Of a stretch of 64,000 nucleotides of DNA, positions 1 through 62,134 are shown in pieces. Origin of the DNA: Malacoraja senta (lineage: Eukaryota); assembly GCA_038087875.1 (NCBI GenBank), contig CM075992.1:8558001-8622000 (forward strand), written 5' to 3'. Each line of letters begins with the position of its first letter. Positions within the stretch are counted from its first letter, which is position 1. Both the position numbers and the translations under genes were made by a program. The notes below the pieces were generated by a model. It was given only the letters and a program-made list of their open reading frames with translations, was not told the origin of the DNA and did not search any database.

Positions 1-1551
1 AAATCCCCTGGGCCTGGTGGTCTGCATCCCAGGGTACCTCAGGAGTGGCTCTAGATATCGTGGATGCATTGGAGTTCATTTTCCAATGTTCTACAGATTC
101 ACGATTAGTCAATGTGGATTGAAGGGTAGCTAATATTATGCTACTTTTTAAGAAAGGTGTGAGAGACGAAACAGGGAATTATAGACTAGTTCGCCTGACA
201 TCGGTGGTGGGGATGATGCTGCAGTCAATCATAAAAGGTGAAATAGCGGCACATTTGGATAGCAGAATGGGTCTGAGTCAGCATGGATTTACAAAGGGGA
301 AATCATGCTTGACTAATCTTCTGGAATGCTTTGATGATGTTACAAGGTAAATGGGCGAGGGGGGGCAGTGGATGTAGTGTACCTCGACTTTCAGAAAGCA
401 TTTCATAAGGTCCCACATAGGAGATTAGTTGGAAAAATTAGGGCACATGAAAGAAAGAGTAGGGATTAACGGGTCTCTTTCAGAATGTCAGGCAGTGACT
501 AATGGGGTACCGCAAGGCTTGGTGCTGGGACTGTAGCTATTTACAATATACATCAATGATTTAGATGCAGAGATTCAAAGCAACATTAGCAATTTTGCTG
601 ATAACACAAAACTGGGTGTCAGTGTGAACTGTGAGGAGAATGCTATGAGAATGCAGGGTGACTTGGACAGGTTTGGTGAGTGGGCAGATGCATGGCAGAT
701 GTAGCTTAATGTGGATAAATGTGTGTTTATCCACTTTGGTAGCAAAAACAGGAAGGCAGATTATTCTCTAAATGGTGTGATGTTGGGAAAAGGGGAAGTA
801 CAACGGGACCTGGGGGGGCTTTGTTCATCAGTCAATGAAATTAAGCATGCAGGTACAGCAGGTAGGGTCTCAACCCGAAACGTCGCCAGTTTCCTTCTCT
901 CCATAGATGCTGCCTCACCGCTGAGTTTCTCCAGCATTTTTGTCTACCTTTGATTATCCAGCATCTGCAGTTCCTTCTTAAACATGCATGTACAATAGGC
1001 AGTGAAGAAAGCGAATGGCATGTTGGCCTTCATATCAAGAGGAGCAAAGAGGTACTTCTACAGTTGTATAGGGCGCTATTGTGTGCAGTTTTGGTCGCCT
1101 AATTTGAGGAACGACATTATTGCCATTGAGAAAGTGCAGCGTAGGTTCACAAGGATAATTCCCGGGATGGCGGGACTGTCATATGCAGAGAGAATGGAGC
1201 GGCTGGGTTTGTGTACTCTGGAATTTAAAAGGATAAGAGCGGATCTTATTGAAATATAAGATTATTATGGATTTGGACATGCTAGAAGCAGGAAACGTGT
1301 TCTCGATGTTGGGGGAGTCCAAAACCAGGGGCCACAGTTTAAGAATAACGGGTAAGCCATGTAGAACGGAGATGAGGAAACACTTTTTCACAGAGAGTTG
1401 TGAGTCTGTGGAATTCTCTGCCTCAGAGGGCGGTGGAGGCCCGTTCGCTGGACACTTTCAAGTGAGAGCTAGATAGGGCTCTTGAAGATAGCGGAGTTAG
1501 GGGATATGGGGAGAAGGCAGGAACGGGGTACTGATTGTGGACGGTCAGCCA
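1..1551 (+). mobile_element. CR1 LINE fragment (RT region to 3' end), decayed; part of the defensin segmental duplication
   Basis: Broken ORFs with CR1 motifs (QHGFTKGKSCLTNLL, YCVQFWSP, RTRGHSL); colinear with 8835-13250. Confidence 0.93.
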
Positions 1552-1743
1552 TTAACTAGATTCTATTCATTCCGTTGTAATGGTGAACAAGGGGAAGGGT
1601 TATTAAGATGCTATTAGTCACCAGGAGTTGTGTTTTCCGCATTGCACACAATATGTTATTCAACGTTTCCATAGTATTTCGCTGCATATGTAAATAAAAT
1701 GATTTCCCGACTGTTTATTCAGCTTCTATTTTCTGCCGTACAG

Positions 1744-1859
1744 CGCATTGCAGAAGAAAGCAAGGAGTGTGTAGGGTGGGTTGACGCAACAACTTTGAGG
1801 AAATCGGAACTTGCACCTACAAGATGAAATGTTGCAGAAGACGTTTTGGACATCGGTAA
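1744..1859 (+). pseudogene. Beta-defensin mature-peptide exon, type B copy 1, with in-frame TGA at the Cys3 position: AHCRRKQGVCRVG*RNNFEEIGTCTYKMKCCRRRFGHR*
   Basis: Same acceptor context as 8272 (ttttctgccgtacag). Spacing C-x6-C-x3-[TGA 1782-1784]-x9-C-x5-CC. TAA 1857-1859 overlaps AATAAA 1858-1863. Flanks are paralogous to about 8082-8535. Confidence 0.85.
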
Positions 1860-2016
1860 TAAAGTGTGCATAAATAAATAATAGTTGCATTATCACAGTT
1901 TCGCTTTTCCTTGCTTCTCTTTTGAGGTAATCCTGCTGGAAGTAACGTTTATCAGGAAAGAAGCGGAAATCGGCAACAGCTGTCAGAAAAGGCTGCAGTA
2001 CAGCATCTTCACACTA

Positions 2017-3535
2017 GACTTTGCCAAGAATATAAAGGAGGATAGTAAAAGCTTCTTTTGGTATGTGAAGAGGAAAAAGTAGTTAAGACCAAAGTTGGAC
2101 CCTTGAAGACTGAAAAAGGGTGAATTTATTATGGGGAATAAGGAAATGGCAGATAGGTTGAACAGGGACATTGGATCCATCTTCACTAAGGAGGACACAA
2201 ACAATCTTCCTGATGTACTATTGGCCAGAGGATCTGGGGTGGCGGAGGGACTGAAGGAAATCCACATTAGGCAGGAAATGGTGTTGGGTAGACTGATGGG
2301 TCTGAAGGCTGATAAATCCCCAGGGCCTGGTGGTCTGCATCCCAGGGTACCTCAGGAGTGACTCTAGATATCGTGGACGCATTGGAGTTGGTTTTCCAAT
2401 GTTCTACAGATTCACGATCAGTCAATGTGGATTGGAGGGTAACAAATATTATCCTACTTTTTAAGAAAGGTGTGAGAGAGCAAACAGGGAATTATAGACC
2501 AGTTTGTCTGACATCGGTGGAGGGGAAGATGCTGCAGTCAATCATAAAAGTTTAAATAGCGGCACATTTGGATAGCAGAATGGGTCTGAGTCAGCATGGA
2601 TTTACAAAGGGAAAATCATGCTTGACTAATCTTCTGGAATGTTTTGAGGATGTGACTAGGAAAATGGACAAGGAAGAGCCAGTGGATGTAGTGAACCTGG
2701 ATTTACAGAAAGCATTTCGTAAGGGTCCACATAGGAGATTAGCGGGCAAAATTTTCGCTCAGGAAAGAAAGAGTAGGGATTAACGGGTCCCGTTCAGAAT
2801 GGCAGGCAGTGACTAGTGGGGTACCACAAGGCTCAATGCTGGGACTGCAGCTATTTACAATATATATCAATGATTTAGATGAAGGGAATCAAAGCAACAT
2901 TAGCAATTTTGCAGATGACACAAAACTGGGGATCGGCGATGAGTGTGAACTGTGATGAGGATGCTATGAGAATGCAGGGTGACTTGGACAGGTTGGGTGA
3001 GTGGGCAGATGCATGGCAGATGTAGTTTGATGTGGACAAATGTGAGGTTACCCACTATGATAGCAAAAACAGGAAGGTAGATTATTATTTAAATGGTGTC
3101 AAGTTGGGAAAAGTAGAAGTACAACAGGATCTGGGGGGGTCCTTATTCATCAGTCAATGAAAGTAAGCATGCAGGTACAGCAGGAAGGGTCTCGACCCCA
3201 AACGTCGCCTATTTCCTTCGCTCCATAGATGCTGCCTCACCCGCTGAGTTTCTCCAGCATTTTTGTCTCCCTTCTATTATCCAGCATCTTGCAGTTACTT
3301 CTTATACATGCAGGTACATCAGGCAGTGAAGAAAGCTTATGGCATGTTGGCCTTCATATCAAGAGGAATCGAGTATAGGAGCAAAGAAGTACTTTGTATA
3401 GGGCGCTAGTGAGACCACACCTGGAGTATTGTGTGCCGTTTTGGTCGCCTAATTTGAGGAACGACATTATTGTCATTGAGAGAGTGCAGCGTAGGTTCAC
3501 AAGGTTTATTCCCGGGATGGCAGGTCTGTCATATG
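2017..3535 (+). mobile_element. CR1 LINE fragment downstream of defensin exon B1
   Basis: KSPGPGGLHPRV, NYRPV, QHGF motifs; same 5' junction (gactttgccaagaatataaagg) as at about 8537. Confidence 0.92.
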
Positions 3536-4176
3536 ATTCTCTTCTCTTTAGGACCTCTCTAATGATATCTGTCATTGATGTATCTTGACGATGAACATGC
3601 CGACAGACGGAGTGTACAGTTAACGAGTAATATTACACAATCAGAGACACAAACACGGCTGGCACGTCGGTCGAGAGGGAGATCACTAGTTGTATTAACT
3701 AAATCACAGAACATCCGTACAGTTTATGGATCATCTCCAGTGCACAAACCTCCTATAAATCTACCTTCAGTATTTACCCGTGAACAAAGAAATGTTCCAA
3801 GTGGCAATTCAGTTTTCCTCCTTCAGTGACAATATCACACCAACATAAACTTCGGAGGAAATTCAAACATGAGGGCGAAATACACTTTCGCTGACGCGAA
3901 CTCAATACCGATCGGGCGCAGAAATTTTAGATAATTACATAATTGTTATTGTTTTTGTTTTTATATTAACAGATCAGGAGAAACAAAGAATCTGGTAATG
4001 TTCCGGAATGCAGGATATAGTGAGAGGCAGGACGGAGTGAAATCAGTTTTGGCAAGAAAATGACACAAGGTCTCGATGGACGAAGAACCACTGGGACCAG
4101 ATAATCTTTCGGCCTGTGCACTAAATTCAGGGCCCCCCAAAATAAATCATACCATGACGTGTTTCCGCAGCGTTCA

Positions 4177-7471: not shown

Positions 7472-7544
7472 ATGACATCCGTGCTTCTTTTAATCTTTGC
7501 AGTGTTGCTCCTGACTCATCGGTTCGCAGAGGGATATGACTTCG
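7472..7544 (+). CDS. Beta-defensin exon 1 (signal peptide MTSVLLLIFAVLLLTHRFAEG + YDF)
   Basis: 24 codons + 1 nt, followed by a strong GTAAGG donor; hydrophobic core LLLIFAVLLL. Confidence 0.85.
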
Positions 7545-8381
7545 GTAAGGGACGATAAACATTTGTGTACACATACTCCACACATCGATGGTGTTTGGAG
7601 GGTGTTGATTTAAAGCTGTGCTCTTTAATATTGTGTGCAGTCCATGAAAAGAGCGTTCAAGGCCCTACCACACACACACACGCACACACACACCAACAAA
7701 TAAACACATACATGGAGGCCTAATTGGTTCAGTGTGGAACGTGAAAGGGATTACTGGATTCACATCACTCAAAAGCGGACGGAACCGTAGAGAAGAGCTG
7801 GGCAAACGTGCACGTGTCCACATAAGCATAATATATTACAATTCCATGCAATTTAAGAAAGATAATTGTTTTATATTTTCATTTCAAAGGGCGACTGGGC
7901 GACTGGGGTGCAAAGGAACGCATCCATCTCTCTTAATACAGATACTGTATCATTCCAGTGAATGTTCCCCGAACAGTATCAAAATATTTCCTCCTTCGCT
8001 GAGACATTCGCTGAGACTTTCTGCCAAATACAGCCGTCCTTTCCTTTGGACCTTCAAGAACAAATGCAAACATTCTACATTGACTAGATTCTATTCATTC
8101 CGTTGTAATCGTGAACAAGGGGAAGGGTTATTGAGATGCTATTAGTCACCAGAAGTTGTGTTTTCCGCATTGCACACAATATGTTATTCAACGCTTCCAT
8201 AGTATTTCGCTGCATATGTGCATAAGATGATTCACCGACTGTTTATTCAGCTTTTATTTTCTGCCGTACAGCGCAGTGCATACGAAGGCATGGATATTGT
8301 AAGATGGATTGCCCCCACCACTATATCCCAATCGGAGCTTGCGACGACTTAAGATGTTGCAAATATGTTGGACCGGTATAG
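7472..8381 (+). CDS. DEFB: Beta-defensin precursor, intact two-exon gene (exon 1 7472-7544, exon 2 8272-8381), 60 aa: MTSVLLLIFAVLLLTHRFAEGYDF/AQCIRRHGYCKMDCPHHYIPIGACDDLRCCKYVGPV*
   Basis: ATG at 7472 has a purine at -3 and starts a hydrophobic signal peptide ending A-E-G. Phase-1 donor G|GTAAGG at 7544/7545; pyrimidine tract and CAG acceptor at 8269-8271. The spliced product is in frame with C-x6-C-x3-C-x9-C-x4-CC spacing and GxC motifs. Stop TAG 8379-8381, AATAAA 8389-8394. Confidence 0.88.
8272..8381 (+). CDS. Beta-defensin exon 2 (mature six-cysteine peptide, type A)
   Basis: Acceptor ttttattttctgccgtacag; (G)CG CAG TGC ATA CGA AGG CAT GGA TAT TGT ... TGT TGC AAA ... GTA TAG. Confidence 0.9.
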
Positions 8382-8535
8382 TATTGGTAATAAAGTGTGC
8401 ATGAATAAATAATAGTTGCATTATCACAGCTTCGCTTTTCCTTCCTTCTCTTTTGAAGTAACCTGCTGGAAGTAAAGTTTATCAGGAAAGAAGCGGAAAT
8501 CGGCAACAACAGTCAGAAAAGGCTGCATTCACACT

Positions 8536-11500
8536 TGACTTTGCCAAGAATATAAAGGAGGATAGTAAAACGTTCATTAGGTATGTGAAGAGGGAAAAAG
8601 TAGTTAAGACCAAAGTTGGACCCTTGAAGACTGAAAAAGGGTGAATTTATTATGGGGAACAAGGAAATGGCAGATTAGTTGAACAGGGACTTTTGATCCA
8701 TCTTCACCAAGGAAGACACAAACAATCTTCCTGATGTACTATTGGCCAGAGGATCTGGGGTGGCGGAGGAACTGAAGGAAATCCACATTAGGCAGGAAAT
8801 GGTGTTGAGTAGACTGATGGGTCTGAAGGCTGATAAATCCCCAGGGCCTGGTGGTCTGCATCCCAGGGTACCTCAGGAGTGACTCTAGAAATCGTGGATG
8901 CATTGGAGTTCATTTTCCAATGTTCTACAGATTCACGATTAGTCAATGTGGATTGGAGGGTAGCTAATATTATCCTACTTTTTAAGAAAGGTGTGAGAGA
9001 CGAAACAGGGAATTATAGACTAGTTTGCCTGACATCGGTGGTGGGGAAGATGCTGCAGTCAATCATAAAAGATGAAATAGCGGCACATTTGGATAGCAGT
9101 AACAGGATCGATCTGAGTCAGCATGGATTTACAAAGGGGAAATCATGCTTGACTAATCTTCTGGAATGTTTTGATGATGTTACAAGGTAAATGGGCGAGG
9201 GGGAGCCAGTGGATGTAGTGTACCTCACCTTTCAGAAAGCATTTCATAAGGTCCCACATAGGAGATTAGTTGGAAAAATTAGGGCACATGAAAGAAAGAG
9301 TAGGGATTAACGGGTCCCTTTCAGAATGTCAGGCAGTGACTAATGGGGTACCACAAGGCTCGGTGGTGGGACTGTAGCTATTTACAATATACATCAATGA
9401 TTTAGATGCAGAGATTCAAAGCAACATTAGCAATTTTGCTGATAACACAAAACTGGGTGTCAGTGTGAACTGTGAGGAGAATGCTATGAGAATGCAGGGT
9501 GACTTGGATAGGTTTGGTGAGTGGGCAGATGCATGGCAGATGTAGTTTAATGTGGATAAATGTGTGGTTATCCACTTTGGTAGCAAAACAGGAAGGCAGA
9601 TTATTATCTAAATGGTGTCAAGTAGGGAAAAGGGGAAGTACAATGGGATCTGGGGGGTCCTTGTTCATCAGTCAATGAAAGTAAGCATGCAGGTACAGCA
9701 GGAAGGGTCTCAACCCAAAATGTCGCCAGTTTCCTTTTCTCCATAGATGTTGCCTCACCCGCTGAGTTTCTCCAGCATTTTTGTCTACCTTTGATTATCC
9801 AGCATCTGCAGTTCCTTCTTAAACATGCATGTACAACAGGCAGTGAAGAAAGCGAATGGCATGTTGGCCTTCATATCAAGAGGAGCAAAGAGGTACTTCT
9901 CCAGTTGTATAGGGCGCTAGTGAGACCACACCTGGAGTATTGTGTGCAGTTTTGGTCACCTAATTTGAGGAACAACATTATTGCCATTGAGAGAGTGCAG
10001 CGTAGGTTCACAAGGATAATTCCCGGGATGGCGGGACTGTCATATGCTGAGAGAATGGAGTGGCTGGGCTTGTGTACTCTGGAATTTAGAAGGATAAGAG
10101 CAGATCTTATTGAAACATATAAGATTATTATGGATTTGGACATGCTAGAAGCAGGAAACACGTTCTCGATGTTGGGGGAGTCCAGAACCAGGGGCCACAT
10201 TTTAAGAATAACGGGTAAGCCATGTAGAACGGAGGCTCAGTTACAGGTTGGTAGATATGACATTGTGGGGATTACTGGGACGTGGCTGCAGGAGAATCGG
10301 GCCTGGGAACTTAATATTCAGGGTTATACATCCTATAGAAAGGACAGGCAGGTGGGCAGAGGAGGGGGGGTAGATCTGCTGGTGAAGGATGGAATTCAGT
10401 CCCTTGCGAGGGAAGACATAGGGACTGACGAGGTAGAGTCAGTGTGGATTGAGTTGAGGAATTGTCAAGGCAAGAAGACATTAATTGGTGTTATTTACAG
10501 ACCCCCAAATAGTAGCCCGGATGTAGGGTGTAAGTTGCAGCAGGAGTTAAAACTGGCATGTAACAAAGGTAATGCCACTCTGGTGATGGGAGATTTCAAT
10601 ATGCAGGTAGACTGGGAAAATCAGGACCCCAAGAAAGAGAGTTTGTAGAATGCCTCTGAGATGGATTCTTAGAGCAGCTTGTAATGGAGCCGACCAGAGA
10701 AAAGGCAATTCTGGATTTAGTGTTGTCCAATGAACCAGATATGATAAGAGAATCCGAGGTAAAGGAACCGCTTGGAGGTAGTGATCATAATATGATTAGT
10801 TTTAACCTGCAATTTGAGAAGGAGAATGTTAAATCGGAAGTGGCAGTGATGCAGTTGAACAAAGGGGACTATGAAGGCATGAGAGGGGAGCTGGCCAAAG
10901 TAGACTGGAAAGGGATCCTAGCAGGAATGACGGTGGAACAGCAATGGCAGGAATTTCTGGGCATAATCCGGGAGATGCAGGATCATTTCATTCCAATAAG
11001 GAAGAAAGATTCTAAGGGGAGTAGGAGGCAACCATGGCTGACAAGAGAAGTTAGGGATAGAATAAAACTAAAAGAAAAGATGTATAACACAGCAAAGAGT
11101 AGCCGGAAGCCAGAGGATTGGGAAACCTTCATAGGACAACAGAAGGAAACAAAACGGGCAATACGGGCTGAAAAGATGAAGTACGAGGGGAAGCTGGCCA
11201 GGAATATAAAGGACAGTAAAAGCTTCTTTAGATATGTTAAGGGAAAAAGAGTTGCAAAGTCAAATGTGGGACCCTTGAAGGCAGACACGGGCGAAATTAT
11301 TATGGGCAACAAGGAAATGGCAGAAGAGTTGAATAGGTACTTCGGATCTGTCTTCACTAAGGAAGACACAAACAATCTCCCAGATGTACTGGAGGACAGA
11401 GGATCTAAGGGGGTAGAGGAACTGAAAGAAATTTTCATTAGGCGAGAAATAGTATTGGGTAGGCTAATGGGACTGAAGGATGATAAATCCCCTGGGCCTG

Positions 11501-13250
11501 ATGGTCTGCATCCCAGGGTCCTCGGGGACGTGGCTCTAGAAATATTGGACGCATTGGTGATCATTTTCCAATGTTCAATAGATTCAGGATCAGTTCCTGT
11601 GGATTGGAGGATAGCTAATGTTATCCCACTTTTCAAGAAAGGAGCGAGAGAGAAAACGGGGAATTACAGACCAGTTAGTCTGACTTCGGTGGTGGGAAAG
11701 ATGCTGGAGTCAATTATTAAAGAGGTAATAATGGGGCATTTGGATAGCAGTAAAAGGATTAGTCCAAGTCAACATGGATTTATGAAAGGGAAATCATGCT
11801 TGACTAATCTTCTGGACATTTTTGAGGATGTGACAAGTAAAATGGATGAAGGGGTGCCAGTGGATGTAGTGTATCTAGACTTTCAGAAAGCCTTTGATAA
11901 GGTCCCGCACAGGAGACTGGTGACTAAAATTAGAGCACATGGTATTGGGGGTAGGGTGTTGACATGGATAGAAAATTGGTTGGCAGACCGGAAGCAAAGA
12001 GTAGGAGTGAATGGGTCCTTTTCAGAATGGCAGGCAGTGGCGAGTGGACTGCCGCAAGGCTCGTTGTTGGGGCCGCAATTGTTTACCACATATATTAATG
12101 ATTTGGAAGAGGGGATTAGGAGCAACACTAGCAAGTTTGCAGATGACACAAAGCTGGGTGGCAGTGTGAACTGTGAAGAGGATGTTAGGAGGTTGTAGGG
12201 TGACCTGGACAGGTTGAGTGAGTGGGCAGATGCGTGGCAGATGCAGTATAATATAGATAAATGTGAGGTTATCCACTTTGGCGGCAAAAACAAGGGGGCA
12301 GATTATTATCTCAATGGGGTTAGGTTAGGTAAGGGGGAGGTACAGCGCGACCTGGGTGTCCTTGTACACCGGTCACTGAAAGTTGGCGTGTAGGTACAGC
12401 AGGCAGTGAAGAAAGCTAATGGAATGTTGGCCTTCATAACAAGAGGATTTCAGTATAGGAGTAAAGAAGTTCTTCTGCAGTTGTATAGGGCTCTGGTGAG
12501 ACCACATCTGGAGTATTGTATACAGTTTTGGTCTCCTAATTTGAGGAAGGACATCCTTGTGATTGAGGCAGTGAAGCGTAGGTTCACGAGATTGATCCCT
12601 GGGATGGCGGGACTGATATATGAGGAAAGATTGAAACGACTAGGCTTGTATTCACTGGAGTTTAGAAGGATGAGGGGAGATCTTATAGAAACATATAAAA
12701 TTATAAAAGGATTGGACAAGCTAGATGCAGGAAAAATGTTCCCAATGTTGGGCGAGTCCAGAACCAGGGGCCACAGTCTTAGAATAATGGGGAGGTCATT
12801 TAAGACTGAGGTGAGAAATAACTTTTTCACCCAGAGTTGTGAATTTATGGAATTCCCTGCCACAGAGGGCAGTGGAGGCCAAATCACTGGATGGATTTAA
12901 GAGAGAGTTAGATAGAGCGCTGGGGGCTAGTGGAGTCAAGGGATATGGGGAGAAGGCAGGCACGGGTTATTGATAGGGGACGATCAGCCTTGATCACAAT
13001 GAATGGCGGTGCAGGCTCGAAGGGCCGAATTGCCTGCTCCTGCACTAATTTTCTATGTTTCTATGTTTCTATGAGGAAACACTTTTTCACAGAGAGTTGT
13101 GAGACTGTGGAATTCTCTGCCTCAGAGGGCGGTGGAGGCCCGTTCTCTGGACACTTTCAAGAGAGAGCTAGATAGGGCTCTTAAAGATAGCAGAGTTAGG
13201 GGATATGGGGAGAAGGCAGGAATGGGGTACTGATTGTGGATGGTCAGCCA
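8536..13250 (+). mobile_element. Older CR1 fragment (8536-10234 and 13071-13250) interrupted by a younger CR1
   Basis: gtagaacggag|atgaggaaacac is contiguous in the paralogous copy near 1361-1382 but is split here. Confidence 0.9.
10235..13070 (+). mobile_element. Younger 5'-truncated CR1 LINE (endonuclease + RT ORF2, few lesions) with (TTTCTATG)n tail
   Basis: GITGTWL, GVIYRPP, MGDFN, SDH endonuclease motifs; 504-aa ORF 10684-12198 with KFADD; absent from the paralogous site. Confidence 0.95.
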
Positions 13251-13442
13251 TTTACTAGATTCTATTCATTCCATTGTAATCGCGAACAAGGGGAAGGGTT
13301 ATTAAGATGCTATTAGTCACCAGGAGTTGTGTTTTCCGCATTGCACACAATATGTTATTCAACGTTTCCATAGTATTTCGCTGCATATGTAAATAAAATG
13401 ATCTCCCGACTGTTTATTCAGCTTTTATTTTCTGCCGTACAG

Positions 13443-13612
13443 CGCAGTGCAGAAGAATGCAAGGAGTGTGTAGGGTGGGTTCACGCAACAACTTTGAGGA
13501 AATCGGAACTTGCACCTACAAGATGAAATGTTGCAGATTCACCACCGTCAGACTAAAGAAATCCCTCCTCATCTCCTTCCAAAAGGAACGTCCTTTTATT
13601 CTGAGGCTGTGA
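13443..13612 (+). CDS. Beta-defensin mature-peptide exon, type B copy 2: five Cys (Cys3->Ser), C-terminus read through into an antisense CR1 fragment; functional status uncertain
   Basis: Acceptor AG 13441-13442; AQCRRMQGVCRVGSRNNFEEIGTCTYKMKCCR then FTTVRLKKSLLISFQKERPFILRL* (TGA 13610-13612). Near-identical to the 1744 copy up to 13537. Confidence 0.7.
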
Positions 13613-19963: not shown

Positions 19964-22900
19964 CTATGTTTGTAATAATTCTATAAATGCAGACCACGTC
20001 AGGTGGAAGTGATCTGGTTTACCTGCTAGGAGGAGTCTTATCTCTTCTAGGTGTAATGTTTCAAACATATTTGAAATCCACATATTTATAGTTGGTATTG
20101 GAGCCTTCTTCCAAAATTTTAGAATTAGCTTTTTTCCAGTTATTAACCCATAGTCCATTAATTTCTTTTGAAACACATTTAGTTCTGGATCATCTTCCGT
20201 TATTCCGAAGATAATCCATTCTGCTTTGGGTATCAGTCTTGTTTTAAATAACTTTGTAAAGATTTCAAAAATTTCATTCCAAAATTTTTGAATTTTTGTA
20301 CAGAAGACAAATGAGTGCGCTATAGTTGCTTCTTGGGATTGACGTTTATCACAAATAGATGATACGTTTGGGAAAATTTTATGAATTTTAGTTTTCGAAT
20401 AATATAATCTATGTAAAATTTTAAATTGTATTAAAGTGTGTCTTACATTAATCGAGCATTTATGCACGTTTAATAAGTATTCATTCCAACTTTCCTTTGA
20501 AATGTTAATAGCTAACTCTTGTTCCCAGTCTCTTCTGATACCCTCCGTAGGTGGTATTTGTACATTTAAAATAATATTATACAAATATGATATTAAGTTT
20601 GCTGATTCCGCTTTTATCTGCATTGCCTCGTCCAATACATCTACTGGATTATTATAATGATCCAAATAGTCGCATATTTGAAAATATTTAAAATATTGAT
20701 TATTTCCGAGTTTATATTTTATTTGTAATTGTTGAAATGAAAGTAATTTTCCAGTTTCATACAAGTCACCAAGCGTTTTAATTCCTAGTCTATCCCATTG
20801 TGTATAAGCTTTATCTATAATAGAAGGACTAAACGAAGGGTTATTGACTATAGGTAATAAAAGTGATAAGTTTCTTAATTTTAAATTTTGTTTTATTTGT
20901 TTCCAAATACGGATTGTACTATGAATAATTGGGTTCTTATTATAGTTTATGTTATTCAGTTTCATTGGAGAGAGGAGGATCGCTCCAATGTTTCTAGAGG
21001 AGCAATCCTCTTTCTCCATTACAATCCAGTCTACTTGCTGGGCGGAGTTATCCATCAGTTGAATCATGTTTTTAATATTTACTGACCAATAATAATACAT
21101 AAAATTAGGTAGTGCTAGACCCCCCAATACTTTAGGTTTATTCAGATGGGTTTTTTGTATTCTATGTGATTTATAGTCCCATATAAAATTAGTGATATCT
21201 GAGTCGAGTTTTTTAAAAAACTTCTTAGGTAAGTATATAGGAATTGATTGAAATAGGTATAAAATTTGTGGTAAAAAGATCATTTTTATTGCGTTTATTC
21301 GGCCTATTAAAGACATCGGGAGCGTTTTCCAGAATTTAATTAATGTATTTAGTTTATTAAGTAGGGGGTCAAAATTTGCCCTGAACATACCTTGATATGT
21401 TCTGGTAATTTCGATTCCCAAATATTTAAATTTTTCTGTAGCTATTTCAAAAGGGAATTTTAAAAGATGTGTTGAATCTTTCGGTTTTATTGACATAATT
21501 TCACTTTTATTCCAATTTATTCTATATCCAGAAAAAGATCCGAAGTCTTCAATTAAATTTAATATGTTTGGTATAGTGATTTGGGGTTTTGTAATATACA
21601 ATAATATATCATCCGCGTATAAAGATATTTTATTATATGAGTCTTTAGTATTATATCCATGAATATCAGGGTGTATTCTAATTTTTTCTGCTAGCGGTTC
21701 AATAATGAGAGCAAACAGCTGTGGTGATAATGAGCATCCTTGTCTATTTCCCCTTGATAGTTGAAATTTCGAGGATAATATGTTATTAGTAAGTATTCTA
21801 GCTGTAGGTTTGTTATATAGTAACTTAATCCATAAAATAAAATTCTCTCCCAGTTGAAATTTTTGTAATACTTTATCCATATAATTCCATTGTACTTGAT
21901 CAAATGCTTTTTCAGCATCCAGCGAAATAATTGATAATTCTTGATCTTCAGATTTGTGTGAGTGCATTATGTTGAGTAGACGTCTCATATTATTAGAAGA
22001 GTATCTCTTAGGGATAAACCCTGTCTGATCTGGGTTTATTAATTTACTAATGTATTTACTTAATCTTCTAGCTAATGTTTTCGCTAATATTTTTTGATCT
22101 GTGTTTAACAATGCTATAGCTCTATATGAGCCAGGTTCTTCTAAATCTTTATTTTTCTTAGGTATTAATGTAATCGTTGATTCCGCTAATGTATCAGGTA
22201 GTATTCGTTTTTTAAAAGCGTATTGGTACATTTTTTGTAATCTTGGTATTATTTTATCATAAAAGCTTTTATAAAATTCATTAGTAAATCCATCAGGGCC
22301 TGGTGTTTTTCCATTTTTTAATGAGTTTATTGTATCTTCTAATTCCTTAATTGAGATTTGTGCACCCAGTTCCTCTTGTTCCTTCAGCTCTAACTTTGGA
22401 AGATTACAGGTATCCAAGAACTTTGTGATATTATTGGAATCAATTATCGTTTTAGATGTATACAAATTCTCGTAAAATTGCGCAAATCTTTTATTAATAT
22501 CCTTCGGTGTTGTTAATAATTCCCCTTTATCTGATTTGATCTTTGGTATAGTATGTTCCTTTTCTCGTTTTTTTAGCTGGCGAGCCAAAAGTTTATGCGG
22601 TTTATCCCCAAATTCAAAGTGCTCTTGTTTTGTAATTTGAAAAAGTCTTATAAGTTTGGCAGATAATAATTTATTTAATTTAAATTTTAAAATTATTATT
22701 TTATTATGTTTATCTATTGATGGATCTTTAGCATTATCTATATCCATTTGTCTAATAAGTTCTTCTAACTGTCTTTGTTCATTCTTATTCTTTTTATTTT
22801 GAAAAGCTTGATATGAAATTATAATACCCCTAATGTATGCTTTAAAAGATTCCCAAAGTAAAGTAGGCGATATATCTGAAGTATCATTTGTTTGAAAAAA

Positions 22901-23740
22901 GACCTCCATTTGTTCTTTTAAATATATACTCGCTTGTGGATCTTTTAAAATTTGAGAGTTAAATCTCCAGAATGATTTATTCTTAGACAATCCTTCCAGT
23001 TTTAAAAAGAAAGTTAGTGGAGAATGGTCTGAAATTGAATTTGTATGGTATATTGCATTAGATGTTTGGGGGATTAATTTTGTATCCAGCCGAAAGTAGT
23101 CTATACGTGAGTATGTCTTATGTACCATTGAGTAAAACGAGTATTCCCTGCCAGTTGGATTCACAATTCTCCAAACATCTGCTATATTAGTGTTATTTAT
23201 ATAGGTATTGAGGAGTTCCCCAGTTTTCGATTTCATATTCCCTCTCTGTTTTTGACTTGATTTATCTAAGTACGGATCTAAAACACAGTTAAAGTCTCCG
23301 CCTATTATAACATTTTGATAGTTTGACTCTGCAATTATATTGAAGATTTTATTGAAAAAGTGGGGGTTATCAAAGTTAGGGGCATATATATTTACCAAAG
23401 TAAGTGGAGTGTCATGGATTTCTCCATTAACTATTAGGTATCTCCCTTCTATATCTGTTATAATATTCTTTGCTTTAAATGGTATACCTTTTCTTATGAT
23501 AATTGACGTGCCTCTAGATTTTGAAGTAAATGAAGAGTGGTATGTTTGACCTATCCATTTCGCCCTCAGCCTAACTTGGTCCTGAGGTTTTAGGTGTGTT
23601 TCTTGTAGGAAGGTAATGTCAGAATTATACATTTTTAGCTGAGCTAATATCTTACCCCTTTTGATAGGTTCGTTAATACCTCTTATATTCCAACTACAAA
23701 ATGAGATTCCTCCTAGGTTCTTTTGTGTGGTGTCATGCAT
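19964..23740 (-). CDS. L1 ORF2: APE endonuclease + reverse transcriptase (1258 aa, uninterrupted)
   Basis: SWNIRG, LQETH, GGDFN, SRIDY, SDH (endonuclease); [22 protein letters not shown] (RT); C-terminal CDKR..H..C knuckle with the second Cys replaced by Arg. Confidence 0.95.
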   Translation of the reverse strand: MHDTTQKNLGGISFCSWNIRGINEPIKRGKILAQLKMYNSDITFLQETHLKPQDQVRLRAKWIGQTYHSSFTSKSRGTSIIIRKGIPFKAKNIITDIEGRYLIVNGEIHDTPLTLVNIYAPNFDNPHFFNKIFNIIAESNYQNVIIGGDFNCVLDPYLDKSSQKQRGNMKSKTGELLNTYINNTNIADVWRIVNPTGREYSFYSMVHKTYSRIDYFRLDTKLIPQTSNAIYHTNSISDHSPLTFFLKLEGLSKNKSFWRFNSQILKDPQASIYLKEQMEVFFQTNDTSDISPTLLWESFKAYIRGIIISYQAFQNKKNKNEQRQLEELIRQMDIDNAKDPSIDKHNKIIILKFKLNKLLSAKLIRLFQITKQEHFEFGDKPHKLLARQLKKREKEHTIPKIKSDKGELLTTPKDINKRFAQFYENLYTSKTIIDSNNITKFLDTCNLPKLELKEQEELGAQISIKELEDTINSLKNGKTPGPDGFTNEFYKSFYDKIIPRLQKMYQYAFKKRILPDTLAESTITLIPKKNKDLEEPGSYRAIALLNTDQKILAKTLARRLSKYISKLINPDQTGFIPKRYSSNNMRRLLNIMHSHKSEDQELSIISLDAEKAFDQVQWNYMDKVLQKFQLGENFILWIKLLYNKPTARILTNNILSSKFQLSRGNRQGCSLSPQLFALIIEPLAEKIRIHPDIHGYNTKDSYNKISLYADDILLYITKPQITIPNILNLIEDFGSFSGYRINWNKSEIMSIKPKDSTHLLKFPFEIATEKFKYLGIEITRTYQGMFRANFDPLLNKLNTLIKFWKTLPMSLIGRINAIKMIFLPQILYLFQSIPIYLPKKFFKKLDSDITNFIWDYKSHRIQKTHLNKPKVLGGLALPNFMYYYWSVNIKNMIQLMDNSAQQVDWIVMEKEDCSSRNIGAILLSPMKLNNINYNKNPIIHSTIRIWKQIKQNLKLRNLSLLLPIVNNPSFSPSIIDKAYTQWDRLGIKTLGDLYETGKLLSFQQLQIKYKLGNNQYFKYFQICDYLDHYNNPVDVLDEAMQIKAESANLISYLYNIILNVQIPPTEGIRRDWEQELAINISKESWNEYLLNVHKCSINVRHTLIQFKILHRLYYSKTKIHKIFPNVSSICDKRQSQEATIAHSFVFCTKIQKFWNEIFEIFTKLFKTRLIPKAEWIIFGITEDDPELNVFQKKLMDYGLITGKKLILKFWKKAPIPTINMWISNMFETLHLEEIRLLLAGKPDHFHLTWSAFIELLQT

Positions 23741-24543
23741 TTTGAATAATTATAGTACCTTTGAATCTTGTGGTGCGTCCATGTCCCAGGTCTTTAGGTA
23801 TTGGGGGAGTTTTTGAATTATTAACTTTTGCTGGTATGTCCATTTTACTCTTATCACTAAACACAAAACACAAACAAGTGATTTTATGTGATAAAAAAAA
23901 ACTAAAAAAGTGAGGCTACAGTGTCTGATATAGTCGGCACTGTAGCAAGTGTCCCACCTGTAGGTGGGAAAAAACCTTGTTTTGACTTCCATTGCGTTGT
24001 TACTCAAATAGCTCCACTCTCTTAGTTAATCATAACATATTAAAATATTAAAACGAGGCCTCACATTCAGATATATAATACAATTTTACCCTGATATTTC
24101 CTTATAACATATATATATATATCAGAGTTTAATTATTAAACCAATATTTTTGATTTCAATAAGAATCAACTGTTGGTTGAAGGGGTTAACGAGACGTGGT
24201 CCTGGACATAAGCCAGGAGCTCGTTTCTCATCCCCTCCTCCCGCTTATAGACAAGGTTACAATTTATTAAAAATTCATATTAGTATGTTAGTTCATTATT
24301 TTTTTTTGTTAGTATTCTAATCTAACCTGCATAACTTTTAAAGTTGTTAATAGGATAAGTTCTTACAATTGGTTATGATATTTTAATCAATAAGCAATTA
24401 TTTTCTGATTCATATTCCAACTGTTAAGTTGTTTACACGTTTTGAACAGAAAATGTCCTTGATTCAACATTCCAGAGATAACAGTGTAACTATCCCCAGA
24501 CAAAACATAGCTGAGAATTGTTCGGATCTGCCAAAGCTCCCTT

Positions 24544-25149
24544 TCATTTCTGTTTTTCAACGATCGTTTGGGCATATTTGAATGCGTCTTCAGGCTTAAC
24601 AAATGACTTTTCAAGACCATTAAAGGAAATACGCATTTTCGCGGGATAAAAAACCCCAAATCTGACCCCTTCTCTCCCTCTTAAAAGATCTTTAACCTTA
24701 TCAAATTTGTTTCTTTTTTGCACAATTTCATACGGGTAGTCCCTGAATATCTTAATAGTGTCCTTGTCCAGCCGCAATTGTACACCATATTTGATTTTAC
24801 TCATAACATATTCCAGTTCTGCAGTATCTCGAAATTTCACTATAATATGTCGTGGATAAGCTTTTCCCGCACCAGATCTTTTTCCAAATCTTGGGACACG
24901 ATGAGCCACTTCGATTTTCGGTTCCTTGGAAAGATTCAACAGTTGTTTCAACAAGCCCATGGCAAATTCACGTACCTGTTCCCCTTCTGCCCCCTCTGAA
25001 ACACCAAGAATTCTCAAATTCTGGCGTCTAGAACGAGCTTCCAGGTCCAGGCATTTGACTGAGACTTTCTCTAATTGAGTCCCCATTTGTAGTGACGCTT
25101 GTTCGTTTTCTCGCCTCATTTGCTCATGTTCTTGCCTCAATTTCGCCAT
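24544..25149 (-). CDS. L1 ORF1 C-terminal part (coiled coil / RRM / CTD)
   Basis: DLEARSRRQNLRILGVSEG, AHRV, IKIFRDYP, FYPAKMRI motifs typical of L1 ORF1p. Confidence 0.88.
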   Translation of the reverse strand: MAKLRQEHEQMRRENEQASLQMGTQLEKVSVKCLDLEARSRRQNLRILGVSEGAEGEQVREFAMGLLKQLLNLSKEPKIEVAHRVPRFGKRSGAGKAYPRHIIVKFRDTAELEYVMSKIKYGVQLRLDKDTIKIFRDYPYEIVQKRNKFDKVKDLLRGREGVRFGVFYPAKMRISFNGLEKSFVKPEDAFKYAQTIVEKQK

Positions 25150-26036
25150 GTCTTCAACCAGTCGAGCCGTGTTTTTCTCCTATCCTTGTAAATCTTCTCT
25201 GCGCCATTTCCAGCTTGACAACATATTTCCTGTAACACGGTGCCCAGAACTGAACACAGCACTCTAAATGCGGCCTCACCAACGTCTTGTACAACTGCAA
25301 CATGACCTCCCAACTTTGCTCAATGCCCTGATGGATAAAAGGTCAATGAACCAAAAGCCTTTTTGACCACCCTATCTACTTGTGGCCCCACTTTCAAGGA
25401 ACTATGTACCAGTAGCATGCCTGTCAAACAGTCTGAAGTAAGGCTCTCGACACGAAACGTCACCCATTCCTTCTCTCCGGAGATGCTGCCTGTCCCGCTG
25501 AGTTACTCCAGCATTTTGTGTCTACCTGCACTACCAGTCCCCCCTGCTCTACACCCTCCCCAGAGCCCTACCATTCACTGTGCAGCTTCTGCCCATGTTA
25601 GTGCTCTGGGTTTATGCTGGAATTTAGTTTTTAACTGTGGTCAGATCAAGAACTTCAGCATCATCGGTCGACCAAAACATCGTCACTCATTGAGCGAGTT
25701 ACCTCAGTGATAACAACTTGAAGCTTTGTGGATGGTACACACTCCAACGAAAGAGACGACGGGCGCTTTCAGCTTCCAGAAGCTTCCGACGACGGTGTCT
25801 TCTCGTTACTTCTGCGGTGGGGTAGGAGTGCAGCTTCTAGATGCTTCCAGAATGATCGAGAAGCAGCACATAGTGTGACGGGACGATATCTCTCGAGCCG
25901 GACTTCCCTGCGGTGAAATGGTTGGAGATTCGTTCAGGTCTTGCCTGCAAAGCAGAAGTGGGCGAGAGCGTTAATCTCATGAATGCGTCAAGAGATAAAG
26001 GAAATAGTGATGCTCTACAAACAACTCCAACAGGCA

Positions 26037-45477: not shown

Positions 45478-48400
45478 TGGTGTCAGCATCGTACCTTTGC
45501 GCCTCCAGTTTACCGGGTTTTCTTTCCTTTGACCCGTTTCCCCATTGTGTTTTTTTATCTCCCGTGCCATGGCTACTTCTTGCCGTAAACCCGATATGCT
45601 GGTCTTCGACTCGGAAATTGCCCATCGGTGGGGTGTCTTTAGACGTGACTTCCAACACTACGTCACGATCGCCCATCCTGCTGCCACCCATGCTACACGG
45701 GCTTCTCTGCTTCTCAACCTGGCTGGTCCCGATGCCCTGGAACGGGCTGAGTCATTTGTCTATGGTGCAGGTGAAGATGCTCGGGACCCGGTATGTCTTA
45801 TGGCTAAGTTTACCGCAATGTGCGACATCCCCACTAACTGCATTCTAGAGCGTTTTAAAATGTTCACCCGGCGTCAGATCTCTGGAGAGTCAATCGATAA
45901 CTATATCGCAGCGTTGCGTCACCTGGCCAGGCGTTGCAGCCTGGACACACTGACCCCCGATCAACTGACCCGGGACATTTTAGTGTATGGTCTTCAAGAT
46001 GAAAAACTAAGGGCTGAACTTCTGCGGAAGCACGACCTGTCTTAACCGAGGCTCTGCAAAACTCCCGCATGGCTGAGGCTGTCGCCTCGGCGGTGTCGTC
46101 TGCTGATCATGACATTAACTTTGCCAGTGTTGCTGGCCGCCGCGGGGGTCCCCTGCACCCGGTGGTAGCAGCCCACAGCGGTGCCCCAACTGCAACTTTA
46201 CCTCCCATCAGTCTAATGTGTGCCCTGCACTGGGAAAAAGTGCAACTTTTGCAGGAAATTGAACCATTTCTCTGCCGCCTGTCGCTCCCGTGGGAAGCCA
46301 ATTCCTGCTCCTCGCCGAATGTTAAACAACCTTGCTCGAGCTGATGAACTCCTTTTGTCTGATACAAGTTCCTCCCAGGGGGAGACCAGCATATTTTCGG
46401 TGTTGGATGCACCTGCACTGATAACGGACCCTTCGGTTCGCGTTACTGTCAACGGCTCGACCTTCACCGCCAAACTCGACACGGGGGCCGTGACCAATGT
46501 AATGTCAATAAGCCTCTTCAAGAAGATAAGGACTGATGAGAAAGTTACTTCCGATAACTCCCTGTTGCATGCCTACGGGGGAAGCGTGCTTGTTCCGGTG
46601 GGAGGGCTACCCTGCACTGCATGCCTCTCGGCCCCTCACTTTTTATCTACTGGATACTAACAACATCACCCTGTTGGGTGCCCGGGCGTGCCAGGACCTC
46701 GGCTTGGTCTCTTTCCACCGTGATATCCACCAGGTGCGGACCCTTATGGACCCCCTGCGCGAATACCCTGACCGTTTTGATGACAAGCTGGGCAAGCTGC
46801 CCTGCAGCTACAAGATTGTTGTCGACCTCGGTGTTGAACCTATGATCCGTCCACCACACCGCGTCTCCTTCGCCATGAAGGACAAGGTGGAGTTAACGCT
46901 GCTCAACATGGTTACCATGGGCATCCTGAAGGAGGTGAGCGAACCCACCCGGTGGGTCTCAACCATGGTTGTTGCTGCAAAAAAGGACAAAAGTGAAATT
47001 CGCATTTGCATCAACCCCAAAGACCTGAACCATGCCATCAGACGCCCTCATTACCCCATGCGAACAGTGGAGGACGTCGCTGCACAGGTTGGCCCGGCCA
47101 CTGTCTTCTCGGTTCTCGATGCCAAGAGCTCCTTCTGGCAGATACCGCTGGACGAGCGGTCCTCCTACCTGACTACCTTCAGCACGCCCTTCGGCAGGTT
47201 CCGATTCCTCCGCATGCCATTCGGGATCAACTCTGCCAGCGAGGTCTTCCAGCGGACGATGGAGCAGCTGTTCGCCGGTCTGCCGTGTGCCATCATCGTT
47301 GATGACATCCTGGTCTACGGTAAGGACGTTGCTGAGCACGATCTCCACCTCCGTCAAGTCCTGGACCGGGCCCGTGAAATCAACCTCAAACTAAACCCAA
47401 AGAAGTGCCGTTTCCGCGTCCCGGAGGTCACCTATGTGGGCCACGTCTTTATCGCATCGGGGCTGAAGCCTGACCCACAGAAGACGGCTGCGGTCTCCGG
47501 GATGTCTTCACCCACCGACGTGCCCAGCCTGCAGCGTTTCTTGGGCATGGTTAATTACTTGGGGAAGTTCATCCCCGACCTCAGCGAGCTGAGCGCGCCC
47601 CTGAGGGAGTTGATCAAGAAGGACACTGCCTGGGCCTGGTTCCCGCATCACCAGAAAGCTTTTGACGTTCTGAAGTCCAGGCTGGCCAGTACACCCACTC
47701 TCCAATTCTTCGATCTGCAGCGTCCCATTGTTCTTACCTGCGACGCCTCCAAGTTCGGTCTTGGTGCTGCTTGCCTGCAGCTCCACGATGGCCTGCAGCT
47801 GCCTGTTTCCTACGCGTCCCGCACCATGGCCCCTGCCGAGCAGTGCTATGCTCAGATAGAGAAGGAACTGCTTGCTCTATCCAAGGTCAAGGACTATATT
47901 CTGGGCAACAGCTTCACGATCGAGACCGACCATCAGCCGCTGGTCTCTATCCTCAACAAGCCGATCCACGTTGCCTCGTCCCGTTTGCAGCGCATGATGC
48001 TGCAGCTCCAGCGTTTTACGTTCAAAATTGTATATCGCAAGGGCAAGGACATGTTCGTGGCCGACACGTTGTCCCGCGCACCGCTAACGTCCACCGATCG
48101 CCATCCATATGAATCGTCTGACCTGATGGTGTGCCTTCCCAGCAGATGCAGTCCCTGGTCAGCAACACTGCCAAGGATCCTGCCCTGCAGCAGCTTGCCG
48201 ACGTCATCAGGCATGGCTGGCCAGACCGTCGTTCATCCTTGCCGGAGTCGTGCCCTACTTCCTGGTCCGTGACGAGCTCGTGCTGCACGACGGCGTGGTC
48301 GTAAAGGGACACAAGATCGTTGTGCCTGCTGCCCTGCGGGACCAATACTTTCAGACCGCCCACCGCGGTGATCCTGGGGCCGAGGCCACCCTGTCTCAGG

Positions 48401-49612
48401 CCCAGAGTTTGTTCTACTGGCCCAGCATGGCCCAAGACATCCGGGAGAGGGTCTCCGCTTGCTCTGTCTGCAATAGCCTCGCTCCCCATCAGCAACGGCA
48501 GCCGCTTCTGCAACAGCCTGCCCCCGAGCTGCCCTGGATGACCGTCGCCGCTGACATTTTTGAGTGGCGTGGCAAGCATTTCCTGGTTCTTGTGGACTCG
48601 TACTCCAGCTGGTTCGAGGTTGACCAGCTGCACTCCCTCACCTCTTCGGCCGTTATCGGGAGGCTGCGCCGCCACTTCGGAACCTTTGGCACCCCGGCAA
48701 GTCTTCAATCGGACAACGGCAGCCAGTTCTCGAGTGCCGAATTTCGGAGTTTCGCTGCCAGCTGGAACTTCCGACACTATACCAGCAGCCCCGGAGTACC
48801 CTCAAAGCAACGGCTTGGCAGAGCGCGCTGTCCGCAGTGCTAAGGACTTGCTGGAACATTGTAGACTGTCCCATTCTGACTTTTACCTGGCCCTCCTCAA
48901 CCTTCGAAACATTTGCCGCGACACTGCCTTGGGCTCCCCAGCACAACGGCTGATGTCTCGCACTACGAGACCTCCGATCCCGGTGACCCAGCGGTCCCTC
49001 GTTCCCTCTGTTCTCCAGCCCGCTGCTGTCCAGGAGCGCATTGCCCTCAAACATGATAACCAAAAGCGCTCCCACGACAAGTCCTGCCGTCCCCTCCCGC
49101 CTCTGTTCCCTGGCCAAGTCGTCCGGATGCAGTCCCCCTCCGGTCACCCCAGGCTTGCCATCGTCGTCGGTACTGCTGGTTCGCCGCGGTCCTATCTAGT
49201 CGACCATGACGGTACTATTTACCGCCGGTCCCGCCAACATCTGCAGCTTGTTAACGAGCCCCCACCTCCGCCTGCAGACCCCTTTTCCCCCCCACAGTCT
49301 GCCACGTTGCCTGCCCCTCCAGCCAGTTCTCCCTCGCCTGCCCGTCTTCCCGCTACTGCTCCTGCCTCCCCTGCTCCGTCTCCGTTTTCTCTTTCTCCTC
49401 CCGATTCCCCGGTTCTCTCACCCGCGCCTGCTCCTACTCATGTTCCTCCTGCAGAGGGGGGAGATGGCGAGCTGCGTACCCGGCCCGGGCGGGTGGTCAG
49501 GCCGCCTGTCCGTTATGGTGATTTTGCTTAACTGTTTGCTCACCTGCTCGTAGCGTATGAGATGTGGTCGCCCTGTCACTACGGTATTGCTTTTTATTTC
49601 CATGGGGAAAGA

Positions 49613-61830: not shown

Positions 61831-62134
61831 CTGCAACACAGCAGCAACGTAATTATAGTTCCAACTAGATTAAGTGGGACCCGTTGGGAGGGCTGGTCCC
61901 CCAATGCAATATTCCACCTCTCCACCAATTCTAATATTGGTCGTCAGTTTGGGGGGGGGGGGGTGTTTCTGGAATGCTAGTATGGGTGTTGTGGGCTGAA
62001 GGGACAGGTTTCCATAGGGCTAGTATGGACATTGTGGGCCGAATAGATACTTGGGCTGGCAGCTCAGTCTGGTGTGCTGGCAGCACTCACTCATGGCTGG
62101 TGGGCTGGCAGCTGACTCATGGCTATTCCTTGAA

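Follow-up and report, generated by a model that had tools for sequence, protein, structure and literature searches.

Beta-defensin genes of primates and rodents were reported to diverge rapidly in the second exon after duplication while the first exon remained static, and this was ascribed to positive selection (PMC1156880, in the part available to us). The mammalian clusters at human 8p22-p23 and the orthologous locus of the mouse are made up of two-exon genes with a near-static signal exon and a fast second exon (the same part of PMC1156880), a pattern also found in the skate genes described here. Cluster B of the zebra finch AvBD genes likewise holds lineage-specific duplicates of recent origin whose signal peptides are identical; sites of the mature peptide under positive selection fall into a class with a ratio of nonsynonymous to synonymous substitution rates (omega, or dN/dS) of 3.67 under model M2a (available portion of PMC3161384). 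In this study a beta-defensin family of the skate Malacoraja senta was analyzed, starting from a window of 64,000 nucleotides (assembly GCA_038087875.1, contig CM075992.1, here C16, positions 8,558,001 to 8,622,000 of the forward strand) that contains a complete gene, A, and downstream of it an orphan second exon, B2. A housekeeping exon of this genome matches a skate protein at 100% identity and proteins of rays and sharks at 88-91%, which agrees with a skate as the source. Most probably, the mature-peptide codons of the complete copies have outpaced their flanks several-fold under positive selection, and the orphan B2 has decayed neutrally.

Accelerated exon-2 evolution after duplication is textbook knowledge; the novelty here is the skate family, together with the pseudogenes that it supplies as a control. 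Mature-peptide exons that outpace introns while the cysteine frame stays fixed are also known from snake phospholipase A2, conotoxins and frog skin peptides, and a mutator explanation was once proposed for conotoxins. In the skate family a mutator of the conotoxin type is disfavoured by the dead copies, and there is no evidence of a venom role. Compared with the mammalian clusters, the skate genes belong to a cartilaginous fish, their duplicates are young (flanks differing by 2-12%), so that intron, untranslated region (UTR) and long interspersed nuclear element (LINE) can be read as a clock, with four dead copies as an internal neutral control. The zebra finch genes have four exons, and no stops or frameshifts were observed in them according to the accessible part of PMC3161384, whereas the skate genes have two coding exons and lesions in 6 of 18 copies. 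The section on fish antimicrobial peptides of a 2019 review (PMC6795676) names no shark or skate beta-defensin, and our literature search, with subscription journals and supplements (e.g., gene lists of genomes) outside its coverage, found no paper on chondrichthyan beta-defensins.

Judged by motif, profile, predicted fold and exon layout, gene A is a vertebrate beta-defensin. Its exon 1 encodes a hydrophobic leader of 21 codons ending in A-E-G, the predicted signal peptide (cleavage site placed by eye), followed by hypervariable codons for YDF, and the putative layout of leader exon, phase-1 GT-AG intron and mature-peptide exon is the same in the five complete copies. The cysteine spacing fits the six-cysteine motif C-X4-8-C-X3-5-C-X9-13-C-X4-7-C-C as defined in the available part of PMC515299. 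The Pfam profile Defensin_beta (PF00711, cut-off 21 bits) gives 22.9 bits for A, 40.1 for C and 19.2, below the cut-off, for B2, and a profile built from 11 family members matches mBD-7, hBD-6 and mBD-8 among the PDB sequences. The fold model of gene A (predicted local distance difference test, pLDDT, 89) has three strands in the antiparallel beta-defensin fold, and its top five matches among 48,161 chains are beta-defensins with Z 4.3-4.9 and a root-mean-square deviation of 0.9-2.3 over 30-35 residues, the low Z being attributed to the small size of the peptide. Cysteine spacing, GxC motifs and three-strand fold are shared by the skate family with the solved beta-defensins mBD-7, hBD-6, hBD-2 and crocodile CpoBD13. 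The disulphides of beta-defensins pair as C1-C5, C2-C4 and C3-C6. The net charge of the exon-2 peptides is +9 in B1, +5 in D, +2 in A (with 3 His), 0 in A2 and -2 in C, so that A, A2 and C are near neutral, unlike the strongly cationic beta-defensins.

Divergence of exon 2 and its flanks

A preliminary description of the window had compared gene A with B2 and put their intron tails at about 94% identity with some 11 differences. The identity was confirmed (93.7% in ungapped register), but 12 of the 190 positions differ (8082-8271 against 13253-13442), and the B2 tail had been started one base early, at 13252. The 30 aligned codons of exon 2 (8274-8363 against 13445-13537) differ at 29 nt in the best placements of the one-codon gap (29-31 nt across five placements) and at 20 of 30 amino acids, just as had been estimated; tail and exon differ in their divergence at p = 1.6e-8 (Fisher test). 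The change had been called almost entirely non-synonymous. This is right insofar as only one codon (CGA/AGA) is purely synonymous, but path-averaged counting finds about 3.2 synonymous steps over about 16 synonymous sites, hidden inside codons with multiple hits. In the alignment, as described before, the two exons have five Cys, IG and the glycines of both GxC motifs in common. For this pair the Nei-Gojobori method gives dN 0.47 and dS 0.23 (ratio about 2), and pairwise maximum likelihood an omega of 6.2 (p = 0.04), so that the pair by itself suggests selection marginally and not decisively. A 165-base contig of the public run X1 (which may be the assembly's own source) matches gene A at 8251-8415 with 0 differences, and therefore exon 2 of A is not an assembly error.

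A and B2 belong to a young subfamily of eight copies, i.e., the complete genes A, A2, C, D and E and the orphans B0, B1 and B2. In a table of eight segments of these copies, every pair shows 1-12% divergence in its non-coding DNA, which comprises the upstream region, the intron, the UTR and 1.5 kb of LINE, while exon 2 differs at 25-37% of bases between intact copies (A-C 23/90, A-D 33/90, C-D 27/93), with A-A2 (9/90) and D-E (18/93) being closer pairs, and at 29-34/90 between A or A2 and the B and E copies. Among the broken copies B0, B1, B2 and E, exon 2 shows only 3-8/93 differences, at or below flank divergence (E-B1 exon against flanks, p = 0.37). When adjacent differences were merged as one event, the excess persisted for A-C (17 clusters against 3.6 expected), A-B2 (21 against 4.6) and C-B1 (20 against 3.5), was weak for A-A2 and D-E (p 0.02-0.03), and was absent for E-B1 and E-B0 (5 clusters against 9 expected).

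The five complete genes vary in exon 1 at 7 of the 9 sites of codons 22-24 but at just 6 of the 63 leader sites (p 3.5e-5), with a non-coding background of 137/873 variable sites. Variability follows the predicted mature peptide across the intron, rather than the exon boundary. As a separate observation, all 6 variable sites of the leader codons (7472-7534 and four paralogues) alter the amino acid and none is synonymous. Each cysteine position has an almost invariant codon (TGC, TGT, TGC, TGC, TGT, TGC) across 18 copies, distant paralogues included, which recalls the cysteine-codon bias of conotoxins.

Selection, decay and rival explanations

Selection was tested with our own MG94-type code on 31 codons under two topologies, and in a flank-anchored model about 1,200 flank columns set the branch lengths. 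From exon 2 alone, omega was 3.0 and 3.25 for the eight copies (p 0.006 and 0.003 against 1) and 3.55 for the five complete genes, a value that, like its test statistic, was reached in none of 332 simulations (0/172 neutral, 0/160 neutral with 20% doublet mutations). Jointly with the flanks, omega was 8.9 or 8.0 on intact-gene lineages and internal stems, and 0.7 or 1.1 on the branches of broken copies (p 0.42-0.74 against 1, with low power without flanks), and two omega classes fitted better than one (p 1e-9 and 2e-8). By branch, intact lineages gave about 24 (A+A2 stem), 11 (A2), 5.6 (C) and 3-7 (D), and broken ones 0.14-0.34 (B1+B2 stem), 0.4-0.7 (B1), 1.3-1.5 (B2), 1.6-1.7 (B0) and 0.02-0.56 (E). 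When intact exons were given their own rate, omega was 3.3-3.5, still at p 0.003. Because recombination in the flanks is real, the flank-based value of 8-9 should be read as an upper limit and 3-3.5 as the cautious estimate. In either case the dN/dS comparison with the intron as neutral reference, proposed in the preliminary description, lies above 1 for the subfamily, in keeping with the diversifying selection after duplication that it had suspected.

Several points weigh against selection of this kind. The data comprise just 31 codons with about 16-17 synonymous sites, and the terminal branch of A has an omega of only 0.1-0.3. The best-fit synonymous rate multiplier of intact exons is 2.3-2.7 times the flank (p 0.07-0.14), and a model without selection, in which the intact exon is 7-fold faster or older, falls only 2.7-3.3 log-likelihood units below the selection-only model. 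The exon-only model does not separate intact from broken copies (p 0.57 and 0.97), and this contrast rests on the flanks; moreover, although lesions are an independent basis for the two classes, these were drawn up only once the distance table was known. Pairwise omega is 0.96 for D-E in spite of its 18 differences, 1.9 for C-D and 2.7 for A-A2, none being significant. In the pairwise analyses 6 of 12 pairs had p above or near 0.1, and for A-B1, A-C and C-B1, with no synonymous change, omega was at its bound and informative only as p 0.001-0.008. Finally, microbes, a receptor or reproduction may be the driver of selection, as candidates only. The family, its gene structure, the lesions of B0, B1, B2 and E, the divergence contrast and an omega above 1 are established.

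Compared with A, copy A2 differs at 24/1129 positions on the 5' side (A-like through exon 2) and at 118/1491 in the LINE, where it is about 1% from B1; the switch lies at about window-equivalent 8540-8570 (p 1e-11). Copy A2 is a chimera, apparently the product of unequal crossing over in which the orphan exon was lost. Divergence also varies between segments for C-B1 (tail and UTR 4.0%, LINE 7.9%, p 0.011) and for A-C (p 0.005). In the approximately unbiased (AU) test the E+B clade preferred by exon 2 is rejected by the flanks (p 0.003), but the groupings of the flank tree are compatible with the exon data (p 0.14 and 0.054). With F, G and H as outgroups, the root falls between A/A2/C and D/E/B (support 79-92), which is not enough to say in which direction the charge changed. 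Conversion of the flanks had been named in the preliminary description as an observation that would speak against selection. The flanks are indeed mosaic, and the split may be older than the 94% identity of the tails implies, but the effect is too small to remove the signal.

It had further been argued that the orphan exon was not dead on arrival, for which no support was found. Copies A and B2 are not sisters: the sister of B2 is B1 (window 1550-1859; 3/93 nt differences, against 8/93 to B0 and 7/93 to E), and omega on orphan branches is 0.14-1.7. Each B copy lost a cysteine by a different route (the fourth Cys to Arg in B0, a stop in B1, Ser in B2), so that none of the three has the six cysteines of a functional beta-defensin. 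Moreover, B2 lacks both a signal-peptide exon of its own (a genome search with exon 1 found none between A and B2) and an intact 3' end, its stop and poly(A) signal being replaced by repeat DNA and homology stopping at 13537. A reading of the B1 TGA as selenocysteine was dropped, as no selenocysteine insertion sequence (SECIS) or other Rfam match was found at E <= 1 in a scan of 1700-3600 and the sister copy has Ser there. Gene E (C16 10250.0 kb) is broken by a +1 frameshift, where a run of A halfway through exon 2 has gained one base; an assembly error was ruled out by the presence of this frameshift in contigs of two public samples. In the assembly, copy I (C16 10099.1 kb) shows a similar gain of one base, also in a run of A near the middle of the exon. 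Neither tree places excess change on branches belonging to orphans alone: the A-B2 distance accrued on the stems to A and A/C, plus stems that B shares with complete genes. The B/E sequence is either the ancestral state frozen in dead copies or arose on stems that the B copies share with the complete genes D and E; the E+B stem carries about 7 changes in the exon tree, and within one genome an orphan and a complete-gene origin both fit.

Taken together, the locus would be explained by a partial tandem duplication of the 190-bp intron tail, exon 2, UTR and LINE, which produced the orphan, and by later copying of the gene-plus-orphan unit as C+B1, A+B2 and D+B0. The units would then have been shuffled through unequal crossing over in the LINE, A2 being such a chimera. 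The complete genes would encode secreted host-defence peptides with three disulphides, in which selection may alter the loops between cysteines and thereby retune surface and net charge (+9 to -2) against microbial or receptor targets, while failed copies drift, the whole amounting to birth-and-death evolution.

An unlikely alternative is that the exons are simply older than their flanks: introns, UTRs and LINEs would have been made alike by gene conversion and unequal crossing over to which exon 2 was not subject, and the intron would be a false clock. The mosaic flanks (the A2 switch, the C-B1 segment contrast and the rejected E+B clade), the synonymous rate of intact exons, perhaps about 2.5 times that of the flank, and above all the D-E pair would fit it. 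However, omega exceeds 1 without any flank data, and the 29/90 exon differences lie above the deepest non-coding divergence of the subfamily (about 12% over 3 kb; p 4e-7) and even above 20% (p 0.004). No closer donor for the A or C exon exists among the 18 copies examined, variation peaks also in three exon-1 codons 730 bp away, and repeated conversion that spared just the mature-peptide codons would itself imply selection. It is decidedly improbable that exon 2 is locally hypermutable, by a targeted mutator or an intrinsic hot spot, with no selection at all. Many differences are adjacent (9 in 6 clusters for A-A2, 29 in 21 for A-B2) and the transition share is lower in the exon (9/29) than in the flank (9/12), as such a process could produce, but four broken copies located in the same surroundings have mutated as fast as their flanks, the changes spare Cys, Gly and Ile codons, and the doublet-mutation simulations never came near omega 3.5 (0/160); a transcription-dependent mutator is still compatible with the data.

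The orphans themselves might be, or have been, functional, either as alternative last exons joined to the leader exon of the upstream gene or as donor cassettes that hand their peptide on to complete genes, and so selected, which we regard as very unlikely. Acceptor and phase are intact in all three, three units maintain the gene-orphan arrangement, in gene E an exon 2 of B type lies within D-type flanks, and the E+B stem changes may have arisen in an orphan. On the other hand, a cysteine is missing from B0, B1 and B2 and the 3' end from B2, the orphan-specific branches are not elevated (omega 0.14-1.7), use would require skipping the proximal exon 2 together with its poly(A) signals, and the exon data are compatible with the tree of the flanks, which makes the B/E sequence ancestral. 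In a related and unlikely scenario, the leaderless orphans 2.3 kb behind complete genes are spare mature-peptide cassettes that are recombined in, or spliced as last exons, and feed diversification; it is put forward because of the exon 2 of E and because A2 is a crossover product. Positive selection on the complete copies with neutral decay of the orphans is preferred over all of these.

Layout of the family and other features of the window

Features of the gene A and orphan region (window coordinates unless C16 is given)
Feature	Position	Strand	Remarks
Orphan B1 intron tail	1550..1743	+	2.3 kb downstream of complete gene C
Orphan exon B1	1744..1859	+	In-frame TGA at third-Cys position (1782-1784)
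Gene A exon 1, coding	7472..7544	+	73 nt, 24 aa open; phase-1 GT donor at 7545
Gene A intron GT...AG	7545..8271	+	8078-8271 is the tail common to orphans; putative splicing, from consensus splice sites and reading frame
Gene A exon 2, coding	8272..8381	+	C-x6-C-x3-C-x9-C-x4-CC; stop TAG 8379-8381
Gene A 3' UTR region	8382..8540	+	AATAAA at 8389-8394 and 8404-8409; 2-11% different among copies
LINE-type repeat between A and B2	8543..13248	+	From self-alignments
Orphan B2 intron tail	13249..13442	+	Acceptor intact; joined directly to LINE DNA; no exon 1
Orphan exon B2	13443..13537	+	Third Cys to Ser (TCA, 13481-13483); repeat DNA from 13538
Gene C, complete	C16 8556.5-8557.6 kb		Just before the window

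Genome searches gave 12 matches with the tail and exon of gene A and 19 with exon 1, and from 24 genomic stretches at least 18 copies of exon 2 were extracted, a lower bound, as the stretch retrieved around several exon-1 matches contained no exon 2. Except for one on C3249, the 18 copies are on C16, at 8.55-8.57 Mb and 10.1-10.9 Mb. Twelve have six Cys in an open frame, four have five (B0, B1, B2 and F) and two are frameshifted (E and I). Gene A2 lies upstream of the window at C16 8546.5-8549.2 kb. A diverged defensin-type leader exon, 75% identical to that of A, is found at C16 8529052-8529165 (minus strand), with no exon 2 in 11 kb downstream, and several exon-1 matches at 10.52-10.81 Mb and on C3249 are also without a clear exon 2.

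The orphans consist of the 190-bp intron tail and exon 2, and stand behind a LINE downstream of a complete gene. The spacing is 2.3 kb for C+B1 and D+B0, and 5.2 kb for A+B2 because of a second LINE insertion (about 10235-13071), which split the older fragment (8543-10234 and 13072-13248) that is part of the duplicated unit; the repeat between A and B2 is presumably of the LINE/CR1 type. Both A-type and B/E-type exons also occur in contigs from at least three other organisms, and therefore these lineages predate the species; B0-like copies with an altered last-cysteine codon were seen in contigs of two of them among the best 40 of 71 matches. The public sequencing runs listed included none of RNA, which bears neither way on expression, and the six distinct runs compared were all contigs.

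Cathepsin B, a conserved neighbour of amniote beta-defensin clusters, was not recovered near the skate genes, as none of 21 papain-family matches is on C16 and a PF08127 search of the genome gave zero matches; a PF00494 match is NDUFAF6, not FDFT1. A search of a protein collection with gene A gave no candidate and one with an 11-row alignment gave 6, none of which scored, although such a word-based and size-limited search is insensitive for peptides of 35 residues; two long cysteine-repeat proteins matching part of the family profile were disregarded. Database silence does not prove the skate peptides unannotated.

Elsewhere in the window, an open frame of 1261 codons that encodes endonuclease and reverse-transcriptase domains (19964-23749, minus strand) and, upstream of it, a frame resembling open reading frame 1 (ORF1; 24544-25179, minus strand) form an apparently intact L1-type element. 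An isolated fragment at 31241-31500 matches the secretin/adhesion family of seven-transmembrane receptors (PF00002, E 4e-12). A long-terminal-repeat retrotransposon-like pol extends over several frames at 45500-49600 (reverse transcriptase and RNase H domains), and a tandem array of 48-bp units with long open frames in two phases runs from 62087 to 64000 and past the window end.

Possible roles and meaning for the family

By analogy with the family at large (PMC515299, available part), host defence would be the default role of the skate peptides. That A, A2 and C are near neutral points to a role other than simple membrane lysis, as far as can be judged from the predicted peptides, and their low charge would fit chemotactic or reproductive roles, which are known for mammalian beta-defensins. 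The four dead copies are an unusually clean natural control for telling apart selection and local hypermutation, which is a standing debate over cysteine-rich peptide families, and the skate copies supply peptides that can be made and assayed. The family extends beta-defensin expansion and adaptive diversification, the latter most probable on the present evidence, to the oldest lineage of jawed vertebrates.

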